From IMG/VR virus record IMGVR_UViG_2806310815_000005: a DNA stretch of 64,000 bases; one strand, written 5' to 3'. The translations under genes were made by a program, and so were the position numbers. The notes beneath the pieces are model-generated. The model was given only the letters and a program-made list of their open reading frames with translations. It was not told where the DNA came from and did no database searches. Of this stretch, positions 5,122 through 60,546 are shown in pieces. The stretch comes from an uncultured virus (IMG/VR IMGVR_UViG_2806310815_000005) (lineage: Duplodnaviria; Heunggongvirae; Uroviricota; Caudoviricetes). Positions within the stretch are counted from its first letter, which is position 1. The number at the start of each line of letters is the position of its first letter.

Positions 5122-5140
5122 TTAGTATATTTATTTTTTT

Positions 5141-6115
5141 TTAATTCCACAAATCTTCTTCATCAAAAGCCGTATTCTGAGAGTATTCTGTTGACTTTTC
5201 ATTGAAAAAATCAAAAGAGGATGACGCTCTCATCTGAACCTCTAAAAATTCTGTAGGTTCTAGTAGTTTACTATCAACTTCAAATTCATTACTATAGCCA
5301 ATCTTATTTAAACTATTATTAAAACGCTCTTTTAAATACTCTTGTATACTTTCTTTCGGTAAAAAATTTAGTTCTTGTTTTTCAAAAATCCAGTTCAGTA
5401 TTTCGCACTCTGCTTTATAAGCTTTATTTATATTACCTCTTATCTTACGCTCCATTTCATCGTCAAACCATTCAGGGAATTCTCTTCTTATAATCCGTAT
5501 TAAATCTTCTCCAAATTTTGCATGTATGTCCTCTTCCCGGCTAGTTGCGCCAATAACCGCATTAAAATTAGATAGAAGATTTTTATACTTTTTAAAAGAG
5601 GATACAATTAATAGTTGTGAAAACAAACTGACATTTTCGACTAATAAAGTAAACAATATTAATGATTTAGTAAACTCTTTATCAGACCTAGAATTTACCC
5701 CTTTTAAGTATTTCCCTAAATAGTCAGCTCTACCTTGCATACAAGGAATACTGTCTAATTTTTCAAACTCTTCATCTAATCCTAGCAGCCCTAAAAGCTT
5801 TTCATAAGTCATTTGGTGTATAGCCTCGTTGGAAGCTATAGTATGCCCTACAATGGCTACTTCAGTCTTAGGCAGGCGCATATCTATCCTAGCATAGAAA
5901 GTTTTAACTTTATTTTCTATAAATCCTATTGCCAACATAGATTTTTTTACTATGTCTTGCTCCCCTTCTGTTAGTTTTGTTTTAAAATCGTTTACATCCC
6001 TATCATAAGTAAAATGCTCAGGAGTCCAAAAACTTTCGTGTATAGCATGTGCATATTTTATTAAGTGTGGGTAAGTATAAGGTTTTACTTTTTCAGCTTT
6101 ATCGAATATCGACAT
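5141..6115 (-). CDS. nrdB: Ribonucleotide reductase class I beta subunit
   Basis: SFWTPE, EAIHQMTY (radical Tyr), VENVSLFS, REEDIH, DFF....TEY; adjacent to nrdA. Confidence 0.95.
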   Translation of the reverse strand: MSIFDKAEKVKPYTYPHLIKYAHAIHESFWTPEHFTYDRDVNDFKTKLTEGEQDIVKKSMLAIGFIENKVKTFYARIDMRLPKTEVAIVGHTIASNEAIHQMTYEKLLGLLGLDEEFEKLDSIPCMQGRADYLGKYLKGVNSRSDKEFTKSLILFTLLVENVSLFSQLLIVSSFKKYKNLLSNFNAVIGATSREEDIHAKFGEDLIRIIRREFPEWFDDEMERKIRGNINKAYKAECEILNWIFEKQELNFLPKESIQEYLKERFNNSLNKIGYSNEFEVDSKLLEPTEFLEVQMRASSSFDFFNEKSTEYSQNTAFDEEDLWN

Positions 6116-6162
6116 TTTGTTAATAAGTTGTTTATAAAATTAGTAATTAATTTAGACAAGAA

Positions 6163-6192
6163 AACCGCCAACAGAAACCTATTGACGGCTTT
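6163..6192 (-). terminator. Probable terminator between thyA and nrdB
   Basis: aaccgccaa...ttgacggctt imperfect hairpin with an A/U tract. Confidence 0.4.
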
Positions 6193-6279
6193 AAAATTTA
6201 GGGGTTACAAATATACTTACTTAGTTTTGATTCTACAAGTATCTAAAATGGTTTTTAATTAAGAAAATTTATTTTAGTG

Positions 6280-7239
6280 TTACACTGCCAATTCCAACTT
6301 TTCAGGTAAATTTTTTATTCCTTTTGGTATATTAAATTCAAAATCATCTATTGTGTAATCGTAAAAGTTTTTATTTTCTTTTAGTCTTACTGTTGGCTGC
6401 TCATTTATAGACTCTCTTTTTAATAATTCCTTTGCGGCGGGTATGTGGCGATTATAGATATGACAGTTTTGCACTATATGTAAAAAATTACCTAACTTGT
6501 GTGTAATTCCTGTTGTGTGTGTTAAATGTCCACAAACCATCATTCCTAACATTATATATTGAGCGGGGTTAATTGAGGCTGTCATCATAAAATCTTGAGA
6601 TCTTTGATTTAAAGTAATATCTATATAATGAACAGGTTCGCTGTAAGGTATATGCTTATCTTCTTCATAAACTTCGTATTTTTCTCTTACGCTCCAAAGT
6701 GTTTGGTATGCACAAGGTACAAGAGCCTGTTTATCCTCCTCCATCTGTTTATTATCCCAAAGATTCATTATATGACGTCGGGAAAAAGGGCTGCTTTCTA
6801 ATCCATATAATAGATTATCAATTAGTTTATATCTTTTTACTGTATGTCCATAGGTTTGTCCTAAACTGTTAAGTGTTCGTCCTGTTAAGTAGTATTCCCA
6901 ATCAAATTTAGATGTGATTGAAATTTTTTCTTCTTCCCAACTTTCAACTACAAAATCCTCCCACCAACTATGTATACTTGAGTGCATTTCTTCAATAACA
7001 TTAGTTTGCTTCTGATAAATAGCTTCAATATCATAATATGCACCTTTCAGAGCTGTTTTACGTAGAGTTGTAATAGGGAATTCTTCTTTAGAAATATCGT
7101 ACTTAAAAACAGCCTGTGTAATGAATTTTGAATGCGCTGGTGCACCATCACTCCATCTCGGTCTAGGGTCTTTGTCCCAACTACCGTTTTCTAGAATATC
7201 TTCAATTGTTTCTAATATATATTTATCGGCTTTAATCAT
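6280..7239 (-). CDS. thyA: Thymidylate synthase
   Basis: FPITTLRK, LGQTYG, SRRHIMNLW, LVPC, QRSQD, N.AQY, HIYNRH. Confidence 0.92.
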   Translation of the reverse strand: MIKADKYILETIEDILENGSWDKDPRPRWSDGAPAHSKFITQAVFKYDISKEEFPITTLRKTALKGAYYDIEAIYQKQTNVIEEMHSSIHSWWEDFVVESWEEEKISITSKFDWEYYLTGRTLNSLGQTYGHTVKRYKLIDNLLYGLESSPFSRRHIMNLWDNKQMEEDKQALVPCAYQTLWSVREKYEVYEEDKHIPYSEPVHYIDITLNQRSQDFMMTASINPAQYIMLGMMVCGHLTHTTGITHKLGNFLHIVQNCHIYNRHIPAAKELLKRESINEQPTVRLKENKNFYDYTIDDFEFNIPKGIKNLPEKLELAV

Positions 7240-7704
7240 TATCTTAAAAATATTTCTATTGTGTCTAAAATCAGTTCTCTTCTTTGTTGTTTTGTTATTG
7301 TTCCTACTTTCTTAAACGACTTTCTAAACTCTTTTAAAACGTGTTGTTTGTATGTTTTTGTAACCGTTATGTTTATATTTTCGTCGGTTTCGTACACTTG
7401 TATATCTAGAGGGTGTTTCGAGTGCTCCCAATACACCCAGCCTAAAGCCGTTTCTTGAAGTAAGTCATCCATCACTTAGAAGTTTTCAATAAGTTTAAAA
7501 ATTCTGTAGCTTCTTTTAAGAGTTCTGTGGCCTCATTAGATAATTTTTCAAACTTGTCATTCTCACCTTTATAGGTATCTTTTAATATCTCACCTATTGT
7601 TTCAAAATCAGGTTTAATCAGTCCTTGATCTTTTAACCAGGGTACTAGTTCGGTCTTAACTAATCTTGTTAAGCCTTCTTTTCTGTAATCTATATTTTCC
7701 ATAA

Positions 7705-8091
7705 TTAAAACTTTTTACCGTTCTTTTTTACTCTGTTACCTACTTGATGATCAGGACGAGATTTATTAAAATTTCTTTTAGCTTCCATAATCTCTCCCGC
7801 ATTTTTACACCCAACAGCTCCTAACAAATCAAAAATTCTAATTAATGCATCTACAAGTTCAACATCTACCATACGATACTGTGGGAGCTTGTCATCCATT
7901 AAGTCTTTTCTATAACCTTCTGTTGCTTCAGATACTTCTGTGGTAATTAAATTTAGTTTTGTACCTATTACATAAGGTGTGAATTTGTGGTTTAACAGAC
8001 TTTCTCCTGTTTCAGGATCATTCCACCAACCTGCTTCTACATTCTTACTGTGTATATCTTTTACTAATTTATTTATTTGTTCTGCTGTCAT
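7705..8091 (-). CDS. MazG-like nucleotide pyrophosphohydrolase
   Basis: LITTEVSEATEGYRK...VELVDALIRIFDL...KRNFNKSR, the all-alpha NTP-PPase signature. Confidence 0.75.
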   Translation of the reverse strand: MTAEQINKLVKDIHSKNVEAGWWNDPETGESLLNHKFTPYVIGTKLNLITTEVSEATEGYRKDLMDDKLPQYRMVDVELVDALIRIFDLLGAVGCKNAGEIMEAKRNFNKSRPDHQVGNRVKKNGKKF

Positions 8092-10293
8092 CTATATAAT
8101 TTTCTAAAGCTGTTATTAATCCTTTATAATCTGTGTAATCTTCGTTTGGATTTACTTCGATATAAGTGTGGAGTATTTTATTTATTTCTTGTCGTCGATT
8201 CATTTCTGCCGCCAATCATTTAATCTGTTTATAATTTCTATTGTTCCTGAATCAAATATCTCAGCATCCTCTAGCATAATTTGCTCGGCAAAGTATAGAA
8301 ATAACTGTTCTGTAATACCCCAATCTTCTGAATCTTCATCTAACAATCTAATGAAATCAACTCTTTCATCAAAAGGGATGTTATTGATAACATCTGCATA
8401 AGTCTCCTCTTCTGTTCTACGGTAAACCGCATTTAAGAGTTTTTCTCCCTCTTTTGTATATCTAAACTGTGTCATAAATCTTTGTATTTTTAAACATTCC
8501 TATTCTAATTGCCTCGTCAAACATTTCCACGAGCTCTACTTTAATTTCTTCTGTTGTAAAAATTGAACTTAGTTCTTTATTGGCAACCTCATTTTTTAAA
8601 AACGGGTACAATTCGTTTAATAAGTATTCACCGTTATCCCAAATATCTCCACATACACCTTCTTCGTAGAAAGCTAATCCTGGCATATAAAATTCCTCTT
8701 TTTCATTTATATTAGCTGATAAATGATACGTATCACAATCGGATACAATGTCTGTATATTTAAACATATTAATATTCGTATTTCATTAAAAATTCTTCTA
8801 TATCTTTTGGTTCTGCAAAGTACAAAATAGTTTTGAATCTTTCAAGTAAATCTGCTTGAATTATCGATAAATTCTCTTCCTCGCTTGGTTTATATCCAAA
8901 CTCTTCAATAGCGTCTTCTTCTGTATATAAGTTTAAATTTTCACGAGCATATTCTATAACATCTTCATCTCTAAACTCATCTAAGTCTACATCTACTTCT
9001 ACCGTTGTTCTATACATCACCTTAACTATTTAAAATTTTATCTCTTTCAATCTGTTTCTTTTCGAGTTCAATTAGATCTAATCTTACCCCTTCTAAATTA
9101 TTGTAAGCTACATCTATTATTTTTGGGGCAACTACATCTCCTTCTTTTAATCGTTCAATTACAAAGAATATAGCTTGCAGTTTGTTTCTTATTTTTTCAA
9201 ATTTTGACTCTCTCATATTTTAGGAGGTAGTATTTAGTTTAATTGAATTAAACCTTGTGAATTTACATAAATGTTCGGTGCTTTCTCAGCTATCTTTTCG
9301 TAATTATCTATTGTTTTAAACAATTCTTCTACTGTTTCACACTCTTTTAAACCCTCATCTAAAAATCTTTTTAAACATTGTTTTAATGTGGGGTGGTATG
9401 TAGAGTTTTCTGTTGTATACTCGTCTCCTTTTTTAAATTTTCCGTTTTTATCGTCTTTGTCGCGCACTTTTGTTGTAGTTATTTTTAACTCCCAACTATT
9501 TGTTGATGCGTCTACTGTTGCGTATTCGTTTAACTTTATCATAATTCAATTAGTTCTATTAATTCACTCTTCTGTTGATTAATCACTGTATGTTGGAATC
9601 TTTCGTAGAATTTAAAATCTTCTGTTTGGTACTTATGAATATAAAACCCGTGTTTTTGAAGCTCATAAATATCCTCTTTTGGAAACCAATTATATAAATC
9701 CTCTAAATTATCTACGGCAGAAATATACCCAACTAATTCAGGATCAAAATCCATTTTCAAATCTCTGTTTTTGCAGAAATTAAACTTATTATGTATAAGT
9801 CCTGTAAACTCACCTTTAAAATCATACCATAATCCTTGCTGCGTATCAATATTATTTACTCTATAAAAATCCATTATTTAATATAAATTTTTTGCGGTAA
9901 TTCTCCAAAAACAAACTTCGTTACAAAACAAAGCCAAACATCAAAACTAAAATGCTCGGAAGTTAAGAGATAATCACCACCATTGTTACTTTCTTTTTCA
10001 AATGTAAGAACAAAATCACAATCTTCAAAAGGCTTTAACGAGATTTTAACTCTTACTCTGTCTCTACCTTGCGCGATAATATCTAGCATAGTATCTGCTC
10101 CTGCGACCATTTCTAAGTCTTCTTTATCTCCTTCCCAATTAGGTAAGTCTATATACCACCTGTTCTCTAAATCTCTGTAAAATGTGAAATATTCTTGCAT
10201 TCTAGTCTTTTATCATATTAATTCTGAAATTGACCATCTTATCTTCAAAAATAATTTTCTCTAATTCATCCATAGTATTGTTTTTAAATTAAA

Positions 10294-13028: not shown

Positions 13029-13988
13029 TTATTTTCCCGTCTCTTTAAACCTTTTTCTTCTTTTCTCCTTGCCTCCGCAAAACTCATAATAATGGTTTCT
13101 ACAATACCCTTTACTACTGTGTTTTTTATCACAACCTTCTACTGAACATTTTCTTTCTTGTCTTTCAAAAGGAGAGTAGGAATCAAATATTTCCTTTTTT
13201 CTTTTAAGAAATATTGTAGAATCTTCATATAACCAATCTCTGAATTTAATACATTGATTAATACCACAATATCTTAAACTTCTTATCTCATCTTCTTTAT
13301 TGTGTCTATCATCTAGTTTAGTTTTAGAAAAATTTAATTCTTCCATTAATATTTCTTGTAAAGGCAGTAAAAAATTTATCGTGCCTACTATAGAAAACTG
13401 TTTTTGTTTATTTCCTGACACACTCCCATCGCCATCAAAATACCCCCTAATAAAATGCCTTTGTAAGTGTTTTGGTACTTGGTCTTCTGTTGGGAACGTT
13501 AAGGTATGTGTTTTTGCCTTACCACAACCTAATTCAACTAATCTCTCACTTATATGTTTATTGGTTATATCTAAATGGCAAATGTCACTATTCCCATAAC
13601 TAGTTTCATTCTTATAAAGATATAACTTCTTAGAGGGTTGTATAAGATTTTTAATTCTATCCAAAATGTTTCTATCGCTATTTTTTAGTACTATTTTTAC
13701 TGAATTTCTGTCAGTGTTATTATAACCGTCTGCATAAAGTAATCCTAACACATAGGCTTTTTCTTCCGTATCTATTTCATCAAAAAACTCTTCATTTATT
13801 TTGTATTTTCTTTGTAATTCCGATTGAGACTTTGTTTTGTAACCATTTCTTTTTAACATTCTACCTATACTTGCTGAAGTTATAGGGAAAAATTTACACA
13901 ACTCTGTGTAATTATAATTACCTGTTTCATACATTTCAAATAGTTTGTTCTTTTCTTCGTGTGATAATCTTCTCTGTTTTGTTTTCAT
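13029..13988 (-). CDS. LAGLIDADG homing endonuclease (two motifs) with N-terminal HTH and C-terminal Cys/His zinc motif
   Basis: AYVLGLLYADG and HFIRGYFDGDG motifs; C-terminal CSVEGC...GYCRNHY. Confidence 0.85.
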   Translation of the reverse strand: MKTKQRRLSHEEKNKLFEMYETGNYNYTELCKFFPITSASIGRMLKRNGYKTKSQSELQRKYKINEEFFDEIDTEEKAYVLGLLYADGYNNTDRNSVKIVLKNSDRNILDRIKNLIQPSKKLYLYKNETSYGNSDICHLDITNKHISERLVELGCGKAKTHTLTFPTEDQVPKHLQRHFIRGYFDGDGSVSGNKQKQFSIVGTINFLLPLQEILMEELNFSKTKLDDRHNKEDEIRSLRYCGINQCIKFRDWLYEDSTIFLKRKKEIFDSYSPFERQERKCSVEGCDKKHSSKGYCRNHYYEFCGGKEKRRKRFKETGK

Positions 13989-14018: not shown

Positions 14019-15095
14019 CTACTTCAACAACCGTGCCACACCTCTTTTCCTAACTACTTTGGCAGCATTTTCATCTGCATTACCACTATGAGAGCATTTC
14101 ACACATTTAAACGTCTCTTGGTTTGGTCTGTTTTCTTTTGATATATGTCCACAATTGTTACATTCTTGTGAGCTGTACTTAGCATCTACTTTTGTTACAT
14201 TTGTTTTATATTCTAAATAGCTTGAAAATTTACTCCAACTAACATCTGATATTGATTTTGAATAGTTTTTATTTTGTATCATTTTAGAAACTTTCAAATC
14301 TTCTAAAAATATGTATTGATAATTACTAGCCAAATCATTTGAAATCTTGTGTAAATAGTCTTCTCTAACTCTTTGTATTTTCAAATATAGCTTTTTAATT
14401 CTCTCCACTTGTTTATACCAATTGTTAGAACCTTTCTTTTTACGTGATAAAGATCTTTGTGCAACTCTTAGTTTCTTTTTAAATTTCTTAGCTGTATTTA
14501 TGTTTTCAAAATATTGCCCATCAGATGTTACTAAAAAATGTTTTATACCTAAATCACAACCTATTTTTGCTTGATTCTCGCATTTTGGTCTTTCATAGTC
14601 TGTAACAATTTGTAAGTACCATCCATCTGCTTTTTTAACTACTCTCGTTAATTTTATGTTTCCATTTACTTCCCTGCTTTTAAATATTTTTATTAATCCT
14701 ATTTTAGGCAATTTAAACTTATTCTTTTCAAATCTTAATATATTACTATTTTGTTTAAATTCTATACTTTTCCATTTTCTTTTAGATGCCCAATGTGGTT
14801 TTGATACCTTAACTCCTCTTTTTAAATCTTTAAAAAACTTATCATAACCTTTGTAAAGCCTCTCTATAACTCCTTGAAGCGTTTGTGCATTTACATTTGA
14901 AATCCATTTACACTCTTTTTTAAGTTCAGGTAGCTGTTTTGACAAATCATACTTACTTAACTTTACACCTTTAGAATAAGCTATTTCTTTTACTTCTTTG
15001 GCTAGATTATATATACATCGAGTTGTATTCAGATGCTCTATGAATATATTTTCTAAAGTTTTAGTAGTCTTTATTTTAAAGGTGTATGTTATCAA
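14019..15095 (-). mobile_element. tnpB: TnpB RNA-guided endonuclease (IS200/IS605/IS607 family); no tnpA seen
   Basis: N-terminal RCIYN HTH; RuvC residues GCDLG, FLEDL and NADENAA; zinc finger SQECNNCGH...FKCVKC. Confidence 0.9.
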
Positions 15096-16400: not shown

Positions 16401-17210
16401 TTCTTATGTTTTTTGTTAATACAAATATACTGTGATTTAGTCTTCTGTGAAAGTATTTAACTTGTTTTTAACTTTTACTGTTTTAAAGACTCGTCAAAAA
16501 CTTTAAAAGCCCAATGAGACAATTGTGTGTTATCATTTTCTCCGAAATAGTTTCTTAGGATTTTTATTTGCCAATCTTGTAACTCAACATTATATTTTTC
16601 TTTAGTGGTTTTTATATTAACCGTGTTATCGGGATTTACTTTTAATTGTTTTTTAAAATAGCCACGATTAGAATGTATCCCTACAGGTTCAATGTACTCT
16701 TCTTCGTATTCGACTAATACATCTTCAATTATATTACCTTTATTATACTCTTCTACATAGTATTCTATCCATTCTTCTGTTGGTTTTGGTTTATATTTTA
16801 TCCAAGGCGATTTATCAACAGTAAATTCAGGGTAATACCTTTCTACTTCCAATTCATCTGTTGTTGCGACTATTTTCTTACTACCTAAAGATGTTTCTTT
16901 TATGACAGCCTCTTCACTTGTTATCTTAAAAGGTCTTTTAGTATCTTTAGTTAAAACCCAATTTCCCTCCTTAATCTTTTCATCTGTTATTAGGTAAATA
17001 TCGTATCTAACTTCGTCTTCAGGGTCATTGAAATTAGCTTGATTATAATACAGCTTTCTTCCTTTGTGTGACCATAACTGACCGTCTTTACTTTCTAGTA
17101 GTATTACTTTTGCTTTTGTGTTCATTGTCATAATTTTCTTTTAACTCTGTCAATTTCATTTGTAAAGTATTGGTTTTACTGGTTTTTTGAGGTATTGTGT
17201 ATAAGTATAG

Positions 17211-17594
17211 TTATGTGGCATTAAAAGTCACCACTTCTATCACGTTCTGAAACTGCTTGAACTTCTGCAATCATATCAGTCCATCTTTTTTCAGCTTTAT
17301 CACATATACAGCAAATCACATATTTTCTACCGCAATATTCACAATTAGATAAATCACCAGATAAATTCTTTTTTACCTTGTCTGTTTTCCATTGTAATTC
17401 CATAACTTTATTGTATGTTTCAATATCTAATTGTAAACATTCTTCCTTTGTCAAAATTCTGCTCATAATAATTAACGCCACATAACACTGTATATAAGGC
17501 ATTGCCTCTGTGGTCTTTTTTAAAGTTTATACTAATTTTAATCTTTCATTCATTCTATTAAGGTTCGTGAGGGCAACGCCTCATATACTAAACG
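17211..17594 (+). mobile_element. Solitary integron-like gene cassette
   Basis: Starts at G|TTATGTGGC (17210-17219) and ends in an attC-like site whose left core GCCACATAAC (17477-17486) is the exact reverse complement. It contains one antisense ORF. Confidence 0.8.
17221..17502 (-). CDS. Cassette ORF, small Cys-rich (CxxC...CCxC) protein; probable start ATG 17466
   Basis: ORF track. The upstream extension lies inside the attC arm, so MSRILTKEE... is the more plausible start. Confidence 0.55.
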   Translation of the reverse strand: MPYIQCYVALIIMSRILTKEECLQLDIETYNKVMELQWKTDKVKKNLSGDLSNCEYCGRKYVICCICDKAEKRWTDMIAEVQAVSERDRSGDF

Positions 17595-17600
17595 TTACAC
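17477..17600 (+). repeat. attC-like recombination site
   Basis: ACATAAC-act-GTATATAAGGCATTGCC ... GGCAACGCCTCATATAC-taaac-GTTACAC. Confidence 0.8.
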
Positions 17601-21751: not shown

Positions 21752-22543
21752 TCATATTGGTGAATTTACTTCATTTAATATATCTTTTGAAACGTGTGTA
21801 TAGATTTCCGTAGTTTTTGAATTCTTATGCCCTAATACTAACTGTATTGTTCTTAAATTTTCTTTTGACTCAACAAGACTCGTCGCATAGCTGTGACGGA
21901 TAATATGTGGATTAATGTCTAAATACTTGTGAGATATGTTTCTTAAACTACTATAAGTGTACTTACCGCCAGTGCCTTCAAATAAAAATTGTTTTGGTTT
22001 GTACTCTTTAAAATACTCTCTTAATAAAATTAAATTATTTTTTGAAAAAGGTACATATCTATCTTTGTTAAATTTAGAATTTCTAACTAATAACAACATT
22101 CTACTTGAGTCTATATCTTCTATTTTTAAATTTAACACTTCAGATGCTCTTAAACCTGTACCAAACATCAAAGATAAGATAGCTTTATGTTTTAAATTAA
22201 CTATCTTGTTAATTTTCAGTATTAATTTTTGTTTCTCTATTACCCTTGGCAACTTTCGTTGTTTTCTAGGTCGATTAAAATCTACCTTGTTGTACTTCTT
22301 TCCTAAAACTTTAGAGTATAAGAATTTTAAACTACTTAAAACTTGATTTTGCTGAGAAACAGAAGAAAATCTATAATTCTTAATATAATTTTCAAAATCA
22401 GAAGAATTTAAATGGATGTACTGCTTCTCTATTTGACAAACAAATTCAGATATATAGTTTAAATATATACGTTGTGTATTTTCGGCGTAATTTAAAAATA
22501 TAAGTTTTTCACTACAAATCTTTATAATTTTTCTATTTTTCAT
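21752..22543 (-). CDS. Tyrosine recombinase (integron-integrase-like / XerD family), putative cassette integrase
   Basis: N-terminal SAM-like region (YAENTQRIY...SQQNQVLSSLKFLY). Catalytic R (GLRASE), K (KFNKDR), HxxR (HIIRHSYAT), LGH and Y (TTEIYTHV). Lies directly beside the cassette array. Confidence 0.9.
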   Translation of the reverse strand: MKNRKIIKICSEKLIFLNYAENTQRIYLNYISEFVCQIEKQYIHLNSSDFENYIKNYRFSSVSQQNQVLSSLKFLYSKVLGKKYNKVDFNRPRKQRKLPRVIEKQKLILKINKIVNLKHKAILSLMFGTGLRASEVLNLKIEDIDSSRMLLLVRNSKFNKDRYVPFSKNNLILLREYFKEYKPKQFLFEGTGGKYTYSSLRNISHKYLDINPHIIRHSYATSLVESKENLRTIQLVLGHKNSKTTEIYTHVSKDILNEVNSPI

Positions 22544-22574
22544 ACTCTAAAGTCTTTGTTTATAGGTGTTTAGA

Positions 22575-22604
22575 TATTAGTTATCGATATATAGTAGTTA
22601 TGCA
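22575..22604 (+). promoter_or_regulatory. Putative attI-like primary integration site
   Basis: ...tatcgatatatagtaG|TTATGCA. This G|TT core has no palindromic arm, lies 54 bp from the integrase start, and begins the first cassette. Confidence 0.6.
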
Positions 22605-22918
22605 CAAGCAAAAGAGCCTGTGCCTTCAACGTCATATCCTACCCATCTACTCACAAGAATAAATTTTACACCTTTAGGGGCTTTTTTCAACTTTCTTCTA
22701 AACGCTTTTACACTTCTACAACTTTGGTGCGAGCTATAACCTTTCTCACCTGCTTTGGGGTTTTGTTCCCATCTATTAGTATTATAATTAAACCACCATC
22801 CATTTTCAAAGGTCGTAAAGCCCATAAATCGGTAATTTATTCTTGTTCTCTTTTGTGCTTTATATTTAAGTTTCATCTTGTCTAATTTTTGCCAGATGCA
22901 TAACAAAGTGTATAGCAA
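22598..22918 (-). CDS. Cassette 1 ORF, hypothetical (probable start ATG 22876)
   Basis: ORF track; its stop codon is the reverse complement of the TTA in the G|TTA core. Confidence 0.6.
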   Translation of the reverse strand: MLYTLLCIWQKLDKMKLKYKAQKRTRINYRFMGFTTFENGWWFNYNTNRWEQNPKAGEKGYSSHQSCRSVKAFRRKLKKAPKGVKFILVSRWVGYDVEGTGSFACA

Positions 22919-22991
22919 ATAGCCTATTAATATTCAGTTCTTAATTCGTTGGTTCGTGCTTCGGCTACTTGCCATACACAAACCGTTCTAA
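22897..22991 (+). repeat. attC-like site 1
   Basis: TGCATAAC-aaa-GTGTATAGCAAATAGCC ... GGCTACTTGCCATACAC-aaacc-GTT. The left core is complementary to the cassette start GTTATGCA. Confidence 0.85.
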
Positions 22992-23027
22992 CAAATAGCA
23001 AAAATGCCTGCGCTAAGTTTGATCTAC

Positions 23028-23252
23028 TTATTTGTCTAAAGTTCCTATATGGTAAGAATCGATGTTATCAAACCAATAGTTTATCCCTTTTTCACTTAAA
23101 GTACGATCGATGTCTATTTGGCAAAGACAAGCATCGGGATTCACATCTTTATAAGCTTCGTCTCTTACCGGCTCGAACTTAAAGTGTTCTTTAAACTGTC
23201 TTGGTGTTTCAATTTCTTTTTCTCCTTCTTTTATTACTATCTTCTGGCATAT
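23028..23252 (-). CDS. Cassette 2 ORF (74 aa, ATA start or start-loss pseudogene)
   Basis: Manual translation: (ATA)CQKIVIKEGEKEIETPRQFKEHFKFEPVRDEAYKDVNPDACLCQIDIDRTLSEKGINYWFDNIDSYHIGTLDK*. There is an in-frame TAA two codons upstream of the ATA. Confidence 0.45.
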   Translation of the reverse strand: MCQKIVIKEGEKEIETPRQFKEHFKFEPVRDEAYKDVNPDACLCQIDIDRTLSEKGINYWFDNIDSYHIGTLDK

Positions 23253-23343
23253 AGTTTATCATTTTAAGTTATTACTGTTTCAGATTTTCCATACTTCCTT
23301 TTTGCGTTACACGCTTAGCCTTCGCTTATATTTTTACTACTTG

Positions 23344-23700
23344 CAAGAACTGTGTATAACAACCATACGTCTAAGGTATAAATCACTTTAATAGTCTTTT
23401 TTTGGCTGTCTCCATCTAATACCTTCCCATTCCCCGAAAACTAAATATCGTTCATTATCGTTACAAACCTTTTCAGCACTATCTCTTCTTACGTTCTTTC
23501 TTTCTCCATTAGGGTAAACTAACCAGCATTTATAATTTTCTCCTTCTGTAGATTTTAATCTTGCTCCTATTTGTAAAGCTTCTAGTATCATATTTTGATA
23601 ATCACTCATAATTCTGTTTTTAAAAGCCAAAAAAATTAATGGCTTGGTTATTAATTAATCGTTATTGTTGTAGTACGGTTGTTATACAATTCCGTTAGCA
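23344..23700 (+). repeat. attC-like site 2, expanded (about 355 bp) with an ORF in its loop
   Basis: CAAGAAC-tg-TGTATAACAACCATAC (from 23344) pairs with GTACGGTTGTTATACA-attcc-GTT (to 23696). Confidence 0.7.
23388..23630 (-). CDS. Hypothetical ORF located between the arms of attC site 2
   Basis: ORF track, 80 aa; probable start MSDYQNMILEAL. Confidence 0.55.
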   Translation of the reverse strand: MAFKNRIMSDYQNMILEALQIGARLKSTEGENYKCWLVYPNGERKNVRRDSAEKVCNDNERYLVFGEWEGIRWRQPKKDY

Positions 23701-23701
23701 A

Positions 23702-23959
23702 CTATTTGCCAATACGAATAGTATCGCCAATTTTAAAAGTCTTGTCACTATAAAATTTAAACCCTACATTATTTTCACCATCAGTAATTCTATATTCGTA
23801 TTTGCACTTTTCTTCTTCAAGTTCATATACATAGTACACTATCATTTTATCAGAGTCGGTTACTTTATCATTTGGTACTCTTGTGTCATCACAAGAAAAG
23901 AAAACAGTTGCTAACAAAGTATATAGTGTATAGCTAATAAGTGTTTTAAATCGTTTCAT
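23702..23959 (-). CDS. Cassette 3 ORF, probable lipoprotein
   Basis: Signal peptide ending VFFS-C (lipobox-like). The signal peptide is encoded by the attC3 left arm. Confidence 0.55.
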   Translation of the reverse strand: MKRFKTLISYTLYTLLATVFFSCDDTRVPNDKVTDSDKMIVYYVYELEEEKCKYEYRITDGENNVGFKFYSDKTFKIGDTIRIGK

Positions 23960-24039
23960 TTGTTTATCTATTTAAGTTATTAATAATTCAAAGTTCAAGC
24001 GTTTTTGGTCGCTACACACCATATACAACCACGTTGGCA
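23906..24039 (+). repeat. attC-like site 3
   Basis: AGTTGCTAAC-aaa-GTATATAGTGTATAGC ... GCTACACACCATATAC-aaccac-GTT. The left core is the exact complement of the cassette start GTTAGCAACT. Confidence 0.85.
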
Positions 24040-24045
24040 GTAATA

Positions 24046-24270
24046 TTAACGTCTAAACTTACCACCAACAACTTGTTCTAGTTTTCTTAAATCTTCTGGC
24101 TCTAAAACTATGGTCTGTCCGTTTTTGCTAACCGCTATTATTTGGTCGGTAAAACCAGCATATTCCTTGTTAGTTGTATTTCCGCACAGCTTCACCATAC
24201 TACTTCCAACATCACCTATAAATAATGCTTTGTTTTGTTCCGTTTCTAAGTCTATTTTATCCCAATTCAT
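24046..24270 (-). CDS. Cassette 4 ORF, hypothetical
   Basis: ORF track, 74 aa, ending 12 bp from the G|TT core. Confidence 0.6.
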   Translation of the reverse strand: MNWDKIDLETEQNKALFIGDVGSSMVKLCGNTTNKEYAGFTDQIIAVSKNGQTIVLEPEDLRKLEQVVGGKFRR

Positions 24271-24307
24271 TGTTTTATAATTTAAAAGTTTATTAATATT
24301 TACACAG

Positions 24308-24335
24308 CACTATTCATAGCTGCATCCCGTTAGTC
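24308..24335 (+). repeat. Right half of a degenerate attC-like site 4
   Basis: cactattcatagc-tgcatccc-GTTAGTC; no matching left arm or AAC core found. Confidence 0.45.
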
Positions 24336-24509
24336 GTAATAACGCCATTCAGTAATTGTATCTTTTTCTTGAGTTATTACTTCAACTGGGTATTTTATAG
24401 CCCACGTAGCACCCCACCCTTTTTGCCACTCTAATTTATATATTTTGCCATCTTCGTCAGGTAACAATGCATATAGCCCATTTCGTCCCTCAACGTACCA
24501 TATGCTCAC
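24330..24509 (-). CDS. Cassette 5 ORF (59 aa, GTG start)
   Basis: Manual translation MSIWYVEGRNGLYALLPDEDGKIYKLEWQKGWGATWAIKYPVEVITQEKDTITEWRYYD*. The stop overlaps the G|TTA core. Confidence 0.45.
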   Translation of the reverse strand: MSIWYVEGRNGLYALLPDEDGKIYKLEWQKGWGATWAIKYPVEVITQEKDTITEWRYYD

Positions 24510-24517
24510 CGTTAGGG
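24459..24517 (+). repeat. Short attC-like site 5
   Basis: AGGTAAC-aat-GCATATAG ... CCATATGC-tcacc-GTTAGGG. Confidence 0.6.
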
Positions 24518-24521
24518 TGCA

Positions 24522-24785
24522 TTAGGATATTTCAAATTGGGTTTGTGCAATCCCAAGCTCTTTAACTATCCCTAACTTTTCTTTTCTGTTTACTAAGTTT
24601 GTTGCGCTTTCCCCACTTCCGTAGGTGCAATTACTTTTCAAATCAGTTGCAGTCCATACAAAAGCACCACTACTTTTTTGATGCTTGCCTGCATTAGTTC
24701 TACGGAAGTTACTTAGTTCTAATCCTAAATCTTTTTTTATTCTTTGTTTAAGTCTTTCAAACATAATAATAACGCCACATAACAA
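24522..24785 (-). CDS. Cassette 6 ORF, hypothetical (probable start ATG 24764)
   Basis: ORF track; the upstream extension lies inside attC6. Confidence 0.6.
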   Translation of the reverse strand: MLCGVIIMFERLKQRIKKDLGLELSNFRRTNAGKHQKSSGAFVWTATDLKSNCTYGSGESATNLVNRKEKLGIVKELGIAQTQFEIS

Positions 24786-24898
24786 CGTATATAAAACATT
24801 GCTTTAGTGGTCTTTTGTTTAGTTAATTTATAATTCAATTCCTTGTGTTTATCTATTAAGTTTCGGCATACAACGTTTCATATACAAATACGTTGTAA
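24774..24898 (+). repeat. attC-like site 6
   Basis: GCCACATAAC-aac-GTATATAAAACATTG ... CAACGTTTCATATAC-aaatac-GTTGTAA; closely related to the site at 17477. Confidence 0.85.
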
Positions 24899-24907
24899 AC
24901 AATAAAA

Positions 24908-25078
24908 TTATTCAGTGCTTACAACAAAGAAGAAATGTTCATCTTCATCTCTACTTCTTACAGCTATACTATGGCTAATTATTTTATATCCTAATTTTTC
25001 TATTCTCTCTATTTCTTCTTTTAAAATGTAATGGGAGCAGTTGGGGTGTGCTTTAAATCTTATTATTCTGTCAGTCAT
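24908..25078 (-). CDS. Cassette 7 ORF (56 aa)
   Basis: Manual translation MTDRIIRFKAHPNCSHYILKEEIERIEKLGYKIISHSIAVRSRDEDEHFFFVVSTE*. Confidence 0.55.
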   Translation of the reverse strand: MTDRIIRFKAHPNCSHYILKEEIERIEKLGYKIISHSIAVRSRDEDEHFFFVVSTE

Positions 25079-25087
25079 AATTTTACA

Positions 25088-25224
25088 GTTTATAACAAGG
25101 GCTATAATTCATACCCTTGTTAGGTTTATGCTTAATTCAATATTTTTCTTTCTATTCACTTATGTACAGTTTGATAGGTTCGTGCATCTAATACGCTACG
25201 ACACCATACCACCATACGTTCAGA
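25088..25224 (+). repeat. attC-like site 7 (array end, arms poorly paired)
   Basis: ATAATTTTAcaGTTTAtAAC matches the complement of the cassette start GTTGTAAACAATAAAATTAT at 17 of 20 positions. The loop has the GGTTCGTG motif and the site ends catac-GTT. Confidence 0.65.
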
Positions 25225-33900: not shown

Positions 33901-36588
33901 TACCGTAAGGAATAATTAGTGTTAATGTTCTGTTAAATTAAAGTACCGTCATCTAAAATTGCTTCAAGCCCTTTTGCGTACTTAATAGCTTCTTTTATAT
34001 CTGTAAAACTTTCAATATTACAATCATTAGTGCTGTTATCAAAAGCGTTCCATTTCTTGTTTTCAAACCAACACCCACCTTTAATTTCTTTATCTTCAGG
34101 GTGTTCGTAAAATTCGCAAGTGTGGTTATTCAAAATTTCTTGTAAATGTTGTTTTGCTTTTTCTCCGATAAGTATCATAACTCTATTCTTTTTAAATTAC
34201 ATAGTAAATATACAAAACATTTACCGCCGCATAAAATATAAATTGTTAAAAATATCATAAAATAAAACCCCATACAACAAAAAATCCCCTATCAAAACAC
34301 TACTAAAGATAGAGGATTAAAAACACAATTATGAAACACCTTTATTTAGTGCCTACTGTAAGACTGTATATAGTTTCAATACAGCTATCTAAATTTCGTC
34401 ACAAGGTTAAAGGCTTTACCTCAACTATCAAAAGATATTAAAATTCATCTCCTTTCTCTCCAAAGAATATTATAAAATCATTTGGGTTACTATTATTCCA
34501 TACTTTAAATACATCCCCGTAGTCTACATCTTTACCTATGTGCAGTACATTTTCCCACTCTTCGGGTCTTTCGGATGTTTTTTCAACTATAAAGTCAGTC
34601 ATAAGTATCTTTTTAAATACTGTTTTCTTTTTGTCTTTTCTTTGCTGTTCTATTGTGGTGTATTTTGTCATTGTTTCTTATTGTTTTTTGTACTTCTTAA
34701 CGGCTTTTTTTAGCTCGTCGAATTTATCGTAGGTTATTAATTGGCAACCTACTTTAATCCCCTTCTCTGTTAGTTCCGCTTCATAACTGTCTGTTATTTG
34801 TACTTTTACTGTTTCTTTGTATACATCTATTGCGGCGATAAATTCGGGAAATGATAATACTTTAAATAAATATTTATCTACATCATTTTTATTACCCCCT
34901 ATAAATTCTTTACCGTTGTATATAATGTACGTGTTTCTTTCGTCTGTTGAATAGCCTTGTAATATTCTGTATTTTGTGCTTTCATATACTTTTAACCCTT
35001 TACCCTCAGCCATTTGTAGTATTACCTCAGCTTGTAGTTGTGTCGGTTTGTAAATTGCTATTTTTTTCCATTTGTGTTTTATTTTTTGTAAATGTATAAA
35101 TTGTTTTCTTTTGCGGCAAGTTTTTAACATAAAATTATAGGCTAGGTAAAACTTTATAACCTCCATCCACATAATTAATACCTTGTACTAATTACATACC
35201 CTCCCTAACCTATACTTTAAAAACTACTACTCAAACAATTCTACTATTATTGTGATTCCTGTTCCGCATTTACTCTGTAAATATACTATTATTTTTTCAT
35301 TGTTGATTTACTTTTAACTTTTGTTTAACTGTTTGTTTTAGCGGCATTTTTAATACCCTCTTTAACTGCTTCAAAAGCTTGCACCGTCCTATCATTATTG
35401 AAAATAGGTGTCATTCTATAAGATTGCATTAACTCATAAAATTCCTGGCTGTTTAGATATTCTTCCATAGCTTAACAATTCTTTAGATCACTATACAACT
35501 GTTCTAAATTGTAGTTTGCAATTAATTCTTTTCTTGTGTCGGTCTTACTTTGTGCCGATTGTTTTAAAGCTTCCTGTTTGCTTATTTGTGCTTTTAGGTA
35601 GTCTTTGTACTGTTGTTTGTCTTGTTGATTGTACGTCATTTTATTTGCTGTTTTGATTGTTTTAAAAATAGATAATACTAAGTAGTAACGCCATCACTAT
35701 CGGGCTTCTATCGGGTATATTTAAACCTTTAGCCTTTAGTAGTTATCTATATTGTAAAGTTATGGTGCATTTAGAAACAACCATACCAAGGTTCAATTTC
35801 TTCGCCATCAGCTACTATTTCTGCGTAAGTCCAATACTTACTTTCAAGGTCGTTTACACTTTCGATGAATTTTTCAGCTTCTTCTCTTGTATCGAAAAGT
35901 TTAGGTTTAATCCAGTCAGCACCTTCACGACCTTTACCTCTTGCTACTATTACTATAAATGATTTCATAAAATAAAAACTCACCATAACACTGTATAAAA
36001 TCAAGTGGGGTTATGTGCTAATTTTAACCACTTCGGCTGTTTAATTTAGTTTTTGCAAGTCGGAATGTGTTAGCCGTTCAATCCCCCACCTGCTTTTATA
36101 CTTTAACGTTAATTCTTTTTTGTTTTCTGCTGTGTTAAAGGTATGCTAATTCTTAGCAAAGATTAGTATCGATACTTGTACCTCTGCTTCATACTTTGTT
36201 AATCCTCCGTAATGATTAGAAGTGCCATTAATTCCTACCCCATAATTATTTTTTGCCTCCTTCCATACGTAAACATCATTTAAACCGTATAAATTTTTAA
36301 AGTACTGTTGTTTTCTTCTTCCGTCGATTGTCATAACTATTAATTTAAGCGTTTTCTAATTTATTATTTTTAGGATTGAAGTATCTTACCGTCTGACCTA
36401 TAACTTTATTGTTACGGTGTGTATTTTTCATTGGTGCAGTTATCATATACCGCCCATCGCTTTGCTTATACACCTTAAAATCTTTCATTGTTTGTCCGAA
36501 AAACTTTAAAGATTTACGTGTGAAAAAATGCGGTGATGTCTCGCTTGATAGTCTTTTAATGTCGTAGATTGTCATTTTAGTAGTGTTT

Positions 36589-51847: not shown

Positions 51848-51981
51848 AACGTGTTTGTATATGAAAAGTAACGTGTTGATTTGCGTTATTTTTCAGCCGT
51901 TGTTGTTTGTTGCGTGATAAACTTTTCTCTCGGGTTATCACTTGCCGAAGTTATTTTTTATATACGGTGTTGTACGTAGGC
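51843..51981 (-). repeat. attC-like site, reverse polarity
   Basis: Plus strand: CTCACAAC-gtgttt-GTATATGAAAAGTAAC ... GTTATTTTTTATATAC-ggt-GTTGTACGTAGGC. Confidence 0.75.
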
Positions 51982-52048
51982 TTTTTATTTTCAGATTGTT
52001 GTTTATCAGTCCAAATATTTTTCTAAATTAGTCAAAAACTTTTATATT

Positions 52049-52264
52049 ATGTCAAACATAAAATTACACTCGATAGTAAAACTGAAAGCTGAACCTAATT
52101 CGGGTGAAATGGTTGTCGAAGATATCAAATCATCTTATCGTAACTTTCCACACGCTACATCTGAAAATCCTGTTGTATTCGTTAAATTTTGGAATCCTAA
52201 AACGCACAATTACGAGTTTGCTCAATTCTACTCACAAGTCCTTATAGTTGTTGATAAAGAGTAA
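52049..52264 (+). CDS. Small YodC/DUF2158-like protein inside a cassette
   Basis: IVKLK....EMVVE...V.V.FW......F....L pattern. Confidence 0.5.
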   Translation: MSNIKLHSIVKLKAEPNSGEMVVEDIKSSYRNFPHATSENPVVFVKFWNPKTHNYEFAQFYSQVLIVVDKE

Positions 52265-52408
52265 ACTTTTTCTCTTTCCATTAAGTCAGTTACGTAATCA
52301 TACATCATTTTAAAACTTGTTACGTTGTCAGTTTTATTCAGTATTGTTTTTATTATGTAACTGATTGTTTCTTTTTCTAATTTTTGTTCTGTGTTCATAC
52401 GTTTTTTA

Positions 52409-52467
52409 GCTTACGTACAACGTGTTTGTATATGGCGCGTTTTAATGCGTTATATACTCTGTTGTGC
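52409..52467 (-). repeat. Short attC-like site, reverse polarity
   Basis: Plus strand: GCTTACGTACAAC-gtgttt-GTATATGGCGCGT-ttta-ATGCGTTATATAC-tct-GTTGTGC. The core is complementary at 12 of 13 positions to GTTGTACGTAGGC at 51969. Confidence 0.8.
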
Positions 52468-59364: not shown

Positions 59365-59475
59365 TTATGAAAAGCTGTCTAGGCTAGTTCAAGTCCTGAG
59401 TGGGTTAGAGGGAAAACCCCTTTTATAAAATATTTTTGCAAACTTAAACTAACACCTAGACAAGCCGCAAATATA
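59354..59475 (-). promoter_or_regulatory. Promoter plus attenuator-like structured 5' leader (copy 2)
   Basis: TATATTTGC box (59467-59475). Helices tgtctagg 59376-59383 / cctagaca 59455-59462 and aacccactca 59354-59363 / tgagtgggtt 59397-59406. Confidence 0.5.
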
Positions 59476-60515
59476 TAACAAAGTTTTTAATTTACCAAAT
59501 ATATAAATTATTTTTTAATGTTAAATTTTTCCGTTTAATTCTAAATACACTAATCCCGCAATAAAACCGCAGAATAAAGCATACAATAATATTAATTTAA
59601 ATATATTCTTCATCAATATCTATTTTCCCTTCCCCTAAAACACCACAAATCCAAGAAGAAAAAGAGTCATAAGTCACTTGCTCAAGTTCAGTTTCGTAAG
59701 TAATGTTGCAGTTTTTACAGTAAACATTATCACCAAAACTACCTTGCATTTCTTCACCACATTCAGGACAATCATATTCAAACATAATAAATAATTTATA
59801 GTAAAAACCAATAGTCGGTATGTCAATTCATCTCTTTAATAACCGTTGCAATTAATACCCACTAGGTTTGCAACTTGGTGACTATCGGCTTATTTTACCA
59901 CCACAGATTAACTGGTTCTGCGAGACCTTGCTCTTAACTCTTACGTTACAGGTGATGTGCAAATATATAATATAAGTATTTAATATACAAGCTTTTTGTT
60001 CATTATTTTAAGATGTTCACGTAAAATGAACACATTATTTTTATGAATAAAAAATCCCCGCAAAATTAATTGCAGGGATAAAGTTTAACATAAAAATAAA
60101 CAATCAATCTAAAATATTCCGTTCTTATCAGTTAACGGTCTAATTATTTCAATATCTGGCTTAAACATTGATAAATTACTAAATAGTATCTCTACCATTT
60201 TTTTAATAGCTCTTGCTGACATATCATTACTTAAATCATACTGTCGCCAAAGCTCCAATGTAAAATTCCTAATAAAATCTTGCTCTTCATCTATAAACCT
60301 ATCTGATATAATTACAGAAAGATTTTCATCCTCCCATAAATATAGATAGAAGTCGTGGTAATTTAACTTATTCACTTGTTTTGGTTTTATAGTACAAACT
60401 TAGAAAAATAATCTCAATAACTAAAATTCCTAAATTTAAACTTGACCCCTACAATAAAAAATCAACATAAACAAACTTTAATACAAAAAAATTTGCATAA
60501 TTCAAAAATTTATCT

Positions 60516-60523: not shown

Positions 60524-60546
60524 CAAAAGTTTAACATATATTTACA

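Follow-up and report, generated by a model that had tools for sequence, protein, structure and literature searches.

What are the imperfect hairpins that recur in this phage genome, and why do their stems mismatch almost exclusively in one way? We analysed a 64,000-nucleotide stretch of DNA from an uncultured virus, hereafter the window, which is a portion of a large phage-like contig of marine origin. A search of cultured and GenBank phages did not find a close relative; three records gave short matches only (69-102 bp). The initial annotation compared six hairpins in the window with attC, the recombination site of integron cassettes, and proposed that the minus strand is recombined as a folded single strand. 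Classical integrons comprise IntI, attI and attC, and it is the folded bottom strand of attC that recombines, according to the available text of two studies (Bouvier et al. 2009, PMC2727003; Mukhortava et al. 2019, PMC6393395). We asked which parts of this anatomy exist in the window and in related loci, which strand would be the substrate, and what else the hairpins could be.

Hairpin sites and their mismatches

All six hairpins are present, no more than 5-7 nt from the positions originally given. On the plus strand each reads AAC, 2-3 nt, stem, then the second stem arm, 5-6 nt and GTT, which agrees with the spacer asymmetry described at the outset; the two arm pairs quoted then had been read correctly from the sequence. 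The assertion that every mismatch is A opposite C needs one exception. In the first 14 arm positions of each site (84 positions over the six), the plus strand has 12 A.C and 0 G.T mismatches, and a single mismatch of another kind lies in site 24463-24513. Four additional sites obey the same rule. Two of them (24208-24331 and 35987-36110) have plus polarity like the first six, and the inverted sites 51848-51971 and 52419-52463 are their mirror image, with 2 and 3 G.T pairs, respectively, on the plus strand. Throughout the ten sites the wobbles occupy fixed positions, either stem 7 and 12 or stem 8 and 13.

These sites have the features of attC: an imperfect inverted repeat, AAC...GTT cores, an unpaired central spacer and a variable loop. 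Direct reading also reveals a AACTTAATAGATAAACA-like motif common to the loops. The stems align without gaps and need no bulge, in agreement with the initial remark that a classical extrahelical base is missing. The L-box extrahelical bases that direct strand choice are absent, and the irregularities are position-fixed G.T wobbles. An exact-seed scan missed most sites because of their mismatches, and a permissive 14-nt scan was very noisy (304 matches in A.C mode) and was restricted to the named sites. Rfam at gathering thresholds returned no match in the entire window.

The bias extends to related loci. On the strand that reads AAC followed by the long spacer, 102 G.T pairs were counted against 19 A.C in 69 candidate sites from the window and nine loci, a set that includes some low-scoring false positives and in which G.T and A.C were scored equally and polarity was taken from spacer asymmetry only. 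We also folded both strands of each site with DNA parameters, a check suggested in the initial annotation. The strand that reads AAC and then the long spacer was favoured in 10/10 window sites, by 1.4-5.3 kcal/mol, and in 45 of 49 covariance-model matches (the opposite strand in 3, with 1 tie; mean ddG -2.47). Pairing is kept in 95.8% of the alignment cells of these 49 related sites, 19 of 20 stem pairs include a compensatory change, and covariation reaches 0.833 compared with 0.198 in shuffles (0 of 500 shuffles reach 0.833), in an alignment built on the model's own structure and biased in its favour. One stem pair is G.T in 48/49 sites. The wobbles are a conserved design and not a sign of lax pairing. 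Nor are they random decay, because they sit at fixed stem positions, one pair is nearly invariant as G.T, and almost every stem pair covaries.

Table 1. Recombinase, junction, hairpin sites and cassettes in the window. Paired positions are the two partners of a wobble; a slash in a motif marks the presumed point of exchange.
Feature	Coordinates	Strand	Details
Tyrosine recombinase, 263 aa, Xer/IntI-like	21752..22543	-	Pfam Phage_integrase and Phage_int_SAM_4
attI-like junction	22544..22606	-	last cassette end ..TGTGCATAA/C at 22597-22606
Conserved TACTATATAT.. after TGTGCATAA/C, upstream of recombinase ATG	within 22544..22606	-	
Hairpin site	22902..22987	-	minus-strand G.T at plus positions 22973/22914 and 22968/22919; dG -12.5 minus vs -8.9 plus; covariance-model score 68.6 bits
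Long hairpin site, 73-aa ORF in loop	23348..23696	-	wobble 23676/23365
Hairpin site	23913..24035	-	wobbles 24020/23925 and 24015/23930; ATG 23959 of 85-aa ORF in loop; flank GTTAGCAACT pairs 10/10 with 23694-23703
Hairpin site, absent from the initial list	24208..24331	-	wobbles 24315/24220 and 24310/24225; loop contains ATG (24270) of 74-aa ORF
Short, weaker hairpin site	24463..24513	-	8-bp clean stem, one wobble; dG -4.8 vs -1.5; fully overlapped by 59-aa ORF (24330-24509); no covariance-model match at E<=0.01
Hairpin site	24781..24894	-	wobbles 24879/24793 and 24874/24798; left half resembles a site in megaphage record LR756500.1
Hybrid or broken site	25094..25215	-	gene-side arm in common with Cellulophaga phage phi13:2; second arm not complementary to this shared arm
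Lone cassette, site 17484-17596 and gene	17210..17596	-	closed by GCCACATAAC (17210-17219), 10/10
Lone cassette, site 35987-36110 and gene	35759..36110	-	closure 9/10 at 35759-35768, weak by itself (122/789 random GTT sites reach at least 9/10 within 1.5 kb)
Inverted mini-array, sites 51848-51971 and 52419-52463	51848..52463	+	G.T on plus strand; brackets plus-strand 71-aa gene; flanks GTTGTACGTA / TACGTACAAC, 10/10

Cassette chain, junction and recombinase

The sites are linked into chains through their flanks. From one site to the next, the right flank of the first and the left flank of the second are reverse complements, and each gene in the arrays of related phage contigs, which reach about 19 sites, is flanked by complementary GTTA-N6 and N6'-TAAC. 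In one related array (L006), 18/18 consecutive pairs match at no fewer than 10 of 13 positions. Among 46 listed pairs, 17 match at 12/13, with G versus A at position 11 as the sole difference. Flank partners were counted as evidence only at predetermined positions; in the window, 23913/23696 match at 12/13, 51971/52412 at 10/10, and further pairs at 11/13 and 10/13. The start of a cassette is complementary to the inverse core of its own site, a hallmark of integrons. The window array is small and partly decayed: it holds one hybrid site and one frameshifted ORF, and the chain is broken at 24463 and 24781 (7/10 on the 10-position count, 6/13 on the 13-position count). Cassette ORFs had no matches in Pfam or PHROG. 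Judged by eye only, the N-terminus of the 85-aa ORF (ATG 23959) resembles a lipoprotein signal peptide.

Arrays end beside a recombinase gene: the terminal N6'-TAAC directly adjoins a conserved sequence whose TAAC start lies 45-60 nt upstream of that gene, in 7/7 loci examined. Every covariance-model match in the loci is upstream of the recombinase and on its strand, bar nine weaker reverse-strand matches to sites already hit.

Array content varies between relatives. Two loci with flanks 86-95% identical (L004 and L010) carry different contents, 7.9 kb versus 2.5 kb of cassettes, and homology between arrays breaks exactly at AAC-1..-2 and GTT+1..+4. At low depth, contigs from an independent marine metagenome run diverge from the window at 22604, 22900 and 22987, one of them matching up to 22604. 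Variable arrays and these contig breakpoints are indirect signs of recombination. Two further runs (X7 and X9) gave short, poorly matching pieces only, and a back-joint from 26095 to 22870 in run X8, at depth 2, is too weak to interpret; stretches that lack coverage in X7-X9 carry no information either way. Some site bodies are identical although the flanks to their left and right both differ, which fits either homogeneous sites or gene conversion; the repeats of chromosomal super-integrons are homogeneous sites. Global identities were ambiguous as to whether a site body belongs with its upstream or downstream gene (some pairs downstream, one upstream, a noisy baseline), and polarity was therefore set by ORF positions and the attI-like junction.

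The recombinase is not an IntI. Its best-scoring family is NCBIfam XerA (162 bits, cut-off 220), and it falls below all Xer cut-offs, with 129 bits against 335 for XerC and 126 against 330 for XerD. The IntI model TIGR02249 gave 148.5 bits in two stretches (cut-off 265), and a true IntI control 394 bits in one. Aligned with VchIntIA (2a3v), residues 18-200 and 210-254 match chain positions 17-206 and 264-308, and about 48 residues are missing. By this alignment, the window recombinase is without the IntI-specific additional domain (the I2 helix region). Homologues in cultured Polaribacter and Cellulophaga phages are 33-34% identical and annotated just as integrases. The cut-off of this best-scoring family (220; NF040815, 'site-specific tyrosine recombinase/integron integrase', XerA-like) is passed by the enzymes of two bacterial relatives with the same kind of array (L027, 228.9 bits; L021, 229.2 bits), whereas the window and phage enzymes, at 162-176 bits, stay below it.

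Altogether, the sites are probably attC-like recombination sites of a phage-borne, integron-like gene-cassette platform, to which adjacency and geometry link the recombinase.

The recombining strand and other explanations

Cassette ORFs have their start codons in hairpin loops and take their stop codon from the TAAC that follows, at its TAA. The crossover would therefore fall at AA/C on the gene-sense strand, the only crossover that leaves the ORFs intact, and the window minus strand would therefore correspond to the bottom strand of attC. The long spacer lies 5' of the stem on this minus strand, as the longer spacer does on the bottom strand of a classical attC, the aadA1 59-base element. ORF ends, the array-end junction (7/7 loci) and spacer side are all independent of the mismatches, and they favour the original proposal that the minus strand is the substrate. 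Its companion, that strand choice may be encoded differently here, fits the absence of an extrahelical base and of an IntI insert, together with the position-fixed wobbles.

A cassette, read on the minus (gene-sense) strand, consists of C, a spacer of 5-6 nt, the 5' arm, a loop in which the start codon often lies, the 3' arm, a 2-3 nt spacer, GTTA-N6, the gene and N6'-TAA. We propose that the 263-aa recombinase would bind the hairpin formed by the gene-sense single strand and cut it at TAA/C. A single strand would then be exchanged with a second site, or with the attI-like site next to the recombinase gene, in the manner of IntI on the bottom strand of attC. Two G.T wobbles in the stem, 5 bp apart and with G always on the 5' arm, and a third at extended R-box position 11, would let the gene-sense strand fold and burden the complementary strand with destabilising A.C mismatches. 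They are probably also recognition marks that replace the extrahelical bases read by the extra domain of IntI. Site anatomy, strand bias, covariation, the cassette chain, the attI-like junction and the variable arrays are observed; we infer that the window recombinase acts on the hairpin sites, that it uses single-stranded DNA, and that strand choice is directed by the wobbles.

The ORFs of the phage cassettes are encoded by the folding (bottom) strand and run in the direction of the recombinase gene, and many begin in the site loop; integron ORFs are promoterless, lie on the top strand and are expressed from Pc. In one other explanation the hairpins act in RNA, as elements of polycistronic phage transcripts for processing, stability or translation control, and mRNA selection produced the G.U-compatible mismatches. 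All window sites with a clear downstream gene have the wobble strand as that gene's sense strand, and in the phage itself the wobble strand is the mRNA strand everywhere, with 52419-52463 as a possible exception; a G.U-tolerant RNA hairpin would give the same bias there. Start codons lie within loops, and the region is present in an RNA-library run, although this is presence only and not proof of transcription. However, selection on mRNA leaves unexplained the complementary flanks that bracket genes, the TAAC/attI-like junction beside the recombinase, and the precise ends of homology at AAC and GTT. In bacterial relatives whose sites share this design, long ORFs lie opposite the wobble strand, so that their bias, like that of a classical integron, is antisense to the genes: 14 G.T to 0 A.C in L076 and 11 to 2 in L027. 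L021, with only 8 to 6, counts against a general bias. In the classical integron control, G.T leads 16 to 4 and the bottom strand is more stable in 9/9 sites. Moreover, site 52419-52463 lies between two minus-strand genes, yet its wobbles are on the plus strand. We consider a purely RNA-level role unlikely, though the transcript may contribute at the phage sites themselves.

PeSL elements of T4-type phages are regulatory promoter/stem-loop cassettes that recombine by homology. The repeats in the window could similarly be modules for homologous or illegitimate recombination, or PeSL-like cassettes, and the recombinase an unrelated lysogeny or dimer-resolution enzyme. For the hybrid site 25094-25215, a crossover within loops is the best explanation, the loops share a motif, and the integrase annotation of the Polaribacter and Cellulophaga homologues is compatible with such an enzyme. 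But the stems covary, which means that pairing and not sequence homology is conserved; duplex homology has no use for a wobble that is biased to one strand and fixed in position; the breakpoints lie at AAC and GTT and not inside the repeats; and in 7/7 loci a conserved junction connects array and recombinase. This makes homology modules distinctly unlikely. Highly unlikely are classical duplex sites of the Xer/dif type, in which both arms would bind the recombinase on double-stranded DNA and the A/G differences would just make the half-sites unequal. The enzyme is closest to XerA, XerC and XerD, and the flank ..ATAA/C resembles the inner end of Xer-binding arms; against this, the arms are 20 to about 300 nt apart, a misfit with an overlap region of 6-8 bp, and the sequence of the inner stem is free to vary as long as it pairs. 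Two other candidates were ruled out: intrinsic terminators on direct reading, as no T-run follows the stems on the sense strand, and IS200/IS605 ends, as the TnpB gene (14019-15095) is not flanked by hairpin sites.

The integron-like platform may belong to something wider. Our tentative reading, which we hold with slightly less than even confidence, is of an integron-like lineage of Bacteroidota phages and bacteria in which a plain Xer-type enzyme that never acquired I2 would recombine single-strand hairpins and would choose the strand by position-fixed G.T wobbles in place of flipped-out bases. Cassettes would run back to front: on the folding strand, the gene would be preceded by its site, its start codon and the signals for its expression.

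Relation to integrons, phage attC clusters and Xer-dependent phages

The I2 helix is held to be the innovation that moved integrases from double- to single-strand substrates, in the available text of Escudero et al. (2016, PMC4792948; 2020, PMC7790495). Here, a full integron anatomy is paired with an enzyme without the I2 domain and with a different strand mark that can be read from sequence. If our tentative reading is true, the I2 helix is no prerequisite for single-strand recombination, and large phages possess a dedicated gene-capture machine. The pairing turns the minimum needs of a tyrosine recombinase for folded single strands into a testable question. For the small accessory genes by which related marine phages differ, the system likewise suggests a dedicated source. 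Integron finders that require the IntI domain may score such arrays only as integrase-less clusters. Our literature search, which left subscription journals and supplements outside, found papers on phage CALINs and on integron strand selectivity, none of them with a recombinase-array system of this kind or with G.T wobble marks.

CALINs in phages are attC clusters without an integrase (Qi et al. 2023, PMC9892861). As the available text of that study describes them, attC-type sites lie among small genes of virulent phages, one of which infects the marine flavobacterium Polaribacter, and IntI1 recombined 5/6 of the sites tested, with higher efficiency on the bottom strand. CALINs have at least two attC sites, and the same text reports no phage-encoded partner enzyme and does not mention wobble marks; by contrast, the arrays described here reach about 19 sites and have a conserved end junction beside a dedicated I2-less recombinase.

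Compared with classical integrons, the platform has much in common. Beside a tyrosine recombinase gene lie an attI-like site and an array of cassettes; AAC and GTT bound the imperfect inverted repeats that form the sites, each with a variable loop and an asymmetric spacer that stays unpaired; the flank ahead of AAC complements the one behind the preceding GTT, which brackets genes with inverted repeats; the folding strand runs in the sense direction of the recombinase; and the wobble bias favours the bottom strand, as in the integron control. Unlike classical integrons, the phage recombinase lacks the IntI-specific domain, the sites have fixed G.T wobbles instead of extrahelical bases, the R box is extended to 10-13 bp, the bottom strand carries the genes, each preceded by its own site and with the start codon in the loop, and the carrier is a large phage.

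A second comparison is with CTX phage, whose folded single-stranded attP hairpin is integrated at the host dif site by the host enzymes XerCD. That hairpin imitates a site of two arms around an unpaired centre; a single strand is exchanged, and the product is later resolved by replication. As with CTX and XerCD, a Xer-type enzyme without the IntI domain would act on a hairpin in the system described here. Unlike CTX, which integrates a whole phage genome, this phage carries a multi-cassette array with an enzyme of its own.

Wobble bias and site polarity

All six plus-polarity sites named in the initial annotation exist, with starts 5-7 nt from those it gave. On the plus strand, each is laid out as AAC, 2-3 nt, an arm, a loop, the complementary arm, 5-6 nt and GTT. 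The claim that their mismatches are exclusively A opposite C holds almost throughout: over the first 14 arm positions, the plus strand of the six sites carries 12 A.C and no G.T, and a single mismatch of another kind breaks the rule. We found additional sites of both polarities (see table). The inverted sites carry G.T on the plus strand, and therefore the bias tracks site polarity and not the strand of the window. The window's own array is small and in part decayed. One site also has a natural short-loop variant: a contig joint in X8, an independent marine metagenome run, skips the 36-nt loop 22925-22960 of site 22902-22987 (depth 5.9).

Hairpin sites and recombinase gene in the window
Feature	Coordinates	Orientation	Remark
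Site	17484-17596	AAC..GTT on plus strand	named in initial annotation
Site	22902-22987	AAC..GTT on plus strand	named in initial annotation
Site	23348-23696	AAC..GTT on plus strand	named in initial annotation
Site	23913-24035	AAC..GTT on plus strand	named in initial annotation
Site	24463-24513	AAC..GTT on plus strand	named in initial annotation
Site	24781-24894	AAC..GTT on plus strand	named in initial annotation
Additional site	24208-24331	polarity as in the six named sites	found in this analysis
Additional site	35987-36110	polarity as in the six named sites	found in this analysis
Additional site, inverted	51848-51971	long spacer first on plus strand	2 G.T on plus strand
Additional site, inverted	52419-52463	long spacer first on plus strand	3 G.T on plus strand
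Tyrosine recombinase, 263 aa	21752-22543	minus	directly downstream of array in gene direction

We extended the count to 69 candidate sites from the window and nine loci, some of them low-scoring false positives, assigning polarity from spacer asymmetry alone and scoring G.T and A.C equally. The strand that reads AAC-long spacer carries 1030 Watson-Crick pairs, 102 G.T, 19 A.C and 20 other mismatches. With DNA energy parameters, it is the more stably folding strand in 10/10 window sites, by 1.4-5.3 kcal/mol; the minus strand is thus favoured at the plus-polarity sites in the folding comparison that the initial annotation proposed. Searching with a covariance model of 15 sites recovered 49 sites at E<=4e-4, and in 45 of these matches the same strand folds more stably (3 opposite, 1 tie; mean ddG -2.47 kcal/mol).

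The wobbles occupy fixed positions. Window sites have them at stem positions 7 and 12 where the spacers are 5-6/3, or at 8 and 13 where they are 5-6/2; in every case the G belongs to the folding strand's 5' arm. In the 49-site alignment, which was fitted to the model's own structure and leans towards it, 95.8% of cells are paired, 19/20 pairs show compensatory changes, and the covariation score is 0.833 vs 0.198 in shuffles (0/500 as high). One pair is G.T in 48/49 sequences and a second in 30/49. An independent MAFFT/RNAalifold run gave compensatory changes in 17/20 pairs, and the same pair was G.U in 14/14 ungapped rows. On these alignments, a wobble that stays invariant while the rest of the stem covaries freely has been kept by selection and is not decay that the site tolerates.

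The probable recombining strand and the origin of the bias

Many cassette ORFs begin in a site loop (ATGs at 23959 and 24270 are examples in the window), continue across the 3' arm and the GTTA-N6 flank, and terminate at the next TAAC, whose TAA is their stop codon. To leave such ORFs undivided in a single cassette, the crossover must fall at AA|C on the gene-sense strand, which puts each site upstream of its gene and gives every cassette a TAA end. The attI-like TAA|C junction next to the recombinase is consistent with this crossover. In integron terms, the plus strand would be the top strand and the minus strand, which folds and carries the wobbles, the predicted cleaved bottom strand. The ORFs and the junction thus support the earlier inference that the minus strand is the substrate.

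Does the bias originate in DNA or in RNA? An RNA hairpin would yield the same bias in the phage, where the wobble strand is the mRNA strand as well. The two part company in bacterial relatives, Bacteroidota genome bins with the same site design and long ORFs on the opposite strand, where G.T:A.C is 14:0 in L076 and 11:2 in L027; L021 has only 8 G.T vs 6 A.C. A second comparison that speaks against RNA as the cause is the classical integron in Shewanella phage M16-3: its genes are on the top strand, whereas the bottom strand is stabler in 9/9 sites, and MFE folds of its attC sites (5018-9487) have 16 G.T on bottom vs 4 on top strands. Since the bias in these relatives and in M16-3 is opposite to the genes, it tracks the recombination strand. 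The M16-3 control suggests that other systems share the G.T bias; a bottom-strand G.T excess may be common to attC sites in general and have drawn little notice.

Recombinase, arrays and cassettes

The recombinase scores below all NCBIfam cut-offs (XerA 162 vs 220; IntI 148.5 vs 265, in two stretches); a true IntI control gave 394 bits in a single stretch. Its alignment to VchIntIA (2a3v) omits chain residues 207-263, the IntI-specific insert region. Of the 120 nearest homologues listed, a single one falls outside 260-270 aa (full range 260-302 aa); many of the 120 sit on contigs >100 kb. From the geometry, we infer that the recombinase acts on the array sites. Just downstream, gene 20680-21576 matches phrog_25228 (PHROG; 3'-5' exonuclease annotation; E 3.8e-29).

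Homologues at 43-56% identity are encoded on eight viral contigs, and further loci were drawn from bacterial and metagenome collections. In relatives, sites of the same type are arrayed upstream of the recombinase and on its strand, up to about 19 of them. As read from sequence, four properties of these putative cassette arrays match integron cassettes: chain, junction, turnover and lone closed cassettes.

Across each gene, the flank that follows one site's GTT and the flank that precedes the next site's AAC are reverse complements. In the related locus L006, 18/18 consecutive pairs match at at least 10/13 positions; pairs in the window match at 12/13 (23913/23696), 11/13 (24208/24035), 10/13 (23348/22987) and 10/10 (51971/52412). 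Among 46 listed flank pairs, 17 are 12/13 with G against A at position 11 as the sole difference, a further sense-strand G.T. In 7/7 loci the final cassette ends in N6'-TAAC, and a conserved TAT.ATATAT sequence comes immediately after it, 45-60 nt ahead of the start of the recombinase gene; conservation starts at TAAC. Two related loci, L004 and L010, have flanks 86-95% identical around different cassettes (7.9 kb vs 2.5 kb), and homology between arrays begins at AAC-1..-2 and ends at GTT+1..+4. The lone cassette 17210-17596 is closed by its own flank (10/10), as is 35759-36110 (9/10, weak if taken alone).

X8 contigs are identical to the window up to 22604 and then diverge, and others match 22900-22987 only, diverging on both sides (depths 2-6 throughout); these points weakly support exchange both at the borders of sites and at the junction. 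The array region is also present in an RNA-library run, a presence that is not in itself a sign of transcription.

After the TAAC of the lone cassettes (17198-17219; 35737-35768) come TATACTTATACAC.. and TTTACAATATAGATAAC.., respectively, loosely like the attI-like sequence at 22585-22596; these may be secondary insertion sites. Cassette 22990-23267 (minus), flanked by sites 22902-22987 and 23348-23696, contains no complete ORF with an ATG start. Inspected by eye, it looks like a frameshifted gene: the frame that opens with ATG runs into a stop about 17 codons on, within an A-rich run, and the long open frame lacks a start.

The window has phage-like content, encoding ribonucleotide reductase, thymidylate synthase, RecA, PhoH, C5 methylase, a LAGLIDADG endonuclease and TnpB; G+C is 30%, and nearly all genes up to 59.4 kb are on the minus strand. 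The LAGLIDADG homing endonuclease gene (13029-13988) adjoins the TnpB/OrfB_IS605 gene (14019-15095), whose 5' region holds an unrelated 16-bp inverted repeat (14964-15086). Near 60 kb (59400-60550), gene orientation, GC skew and AT skew all switch sign, which may mark the edge of a module or an origin of replication. In the case of an origin, the array's folding strand would be the lagging-strand template.

Relation to bacterial, phage and classical integron systems

The bacterial loci L076, L077, L027 and L021 share the design (TAAC, asymmetric spacers, fixed wobbles, chained flanks) beside recombinases without the IntI-specific (I2) insert, and their genes lie on the opposite strand. L076 and L077 have near-identical 344-nt sites, and the L027 and L021 arrays are situated beyond the recombinase's 3' end. 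A small gene and the site arm next to it, at 25076-25144, are shared with the cultured Cellulophaga phage phi13:2 (L003, 14963-15031; 89.9% over 69 bp). In phi13:2, sites and half-sites of a similar kind are interspersed with the small genes gp023-gp037; they lie upstream of gp038, a 428-aa tyrosine recombinase of the phage's own.

We found no published description of this recombinase-array system in the literature searched. Integrase-less attC clusters that recombine with IntI1 are reported in virulent phages, one from Polaribacter, by Qi et al. 2023 (PMC9892861). The passages of PMC6393395 on attC strand choice ascribe it to extrahelical bases, the central spacer and the loop, and wobbles are not mentioned in those passages. 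The IntI-specific domain is described in PMC4792948 and PMC7790495 as the adaptation to single-strand substrates. What is unusual for the present system is the fixed wobble position together with the lack of bulged bases. The array has the same position relative to the recombinase as in classical integrons; unlike in those, the genes here are flipped onto the bottom strand.
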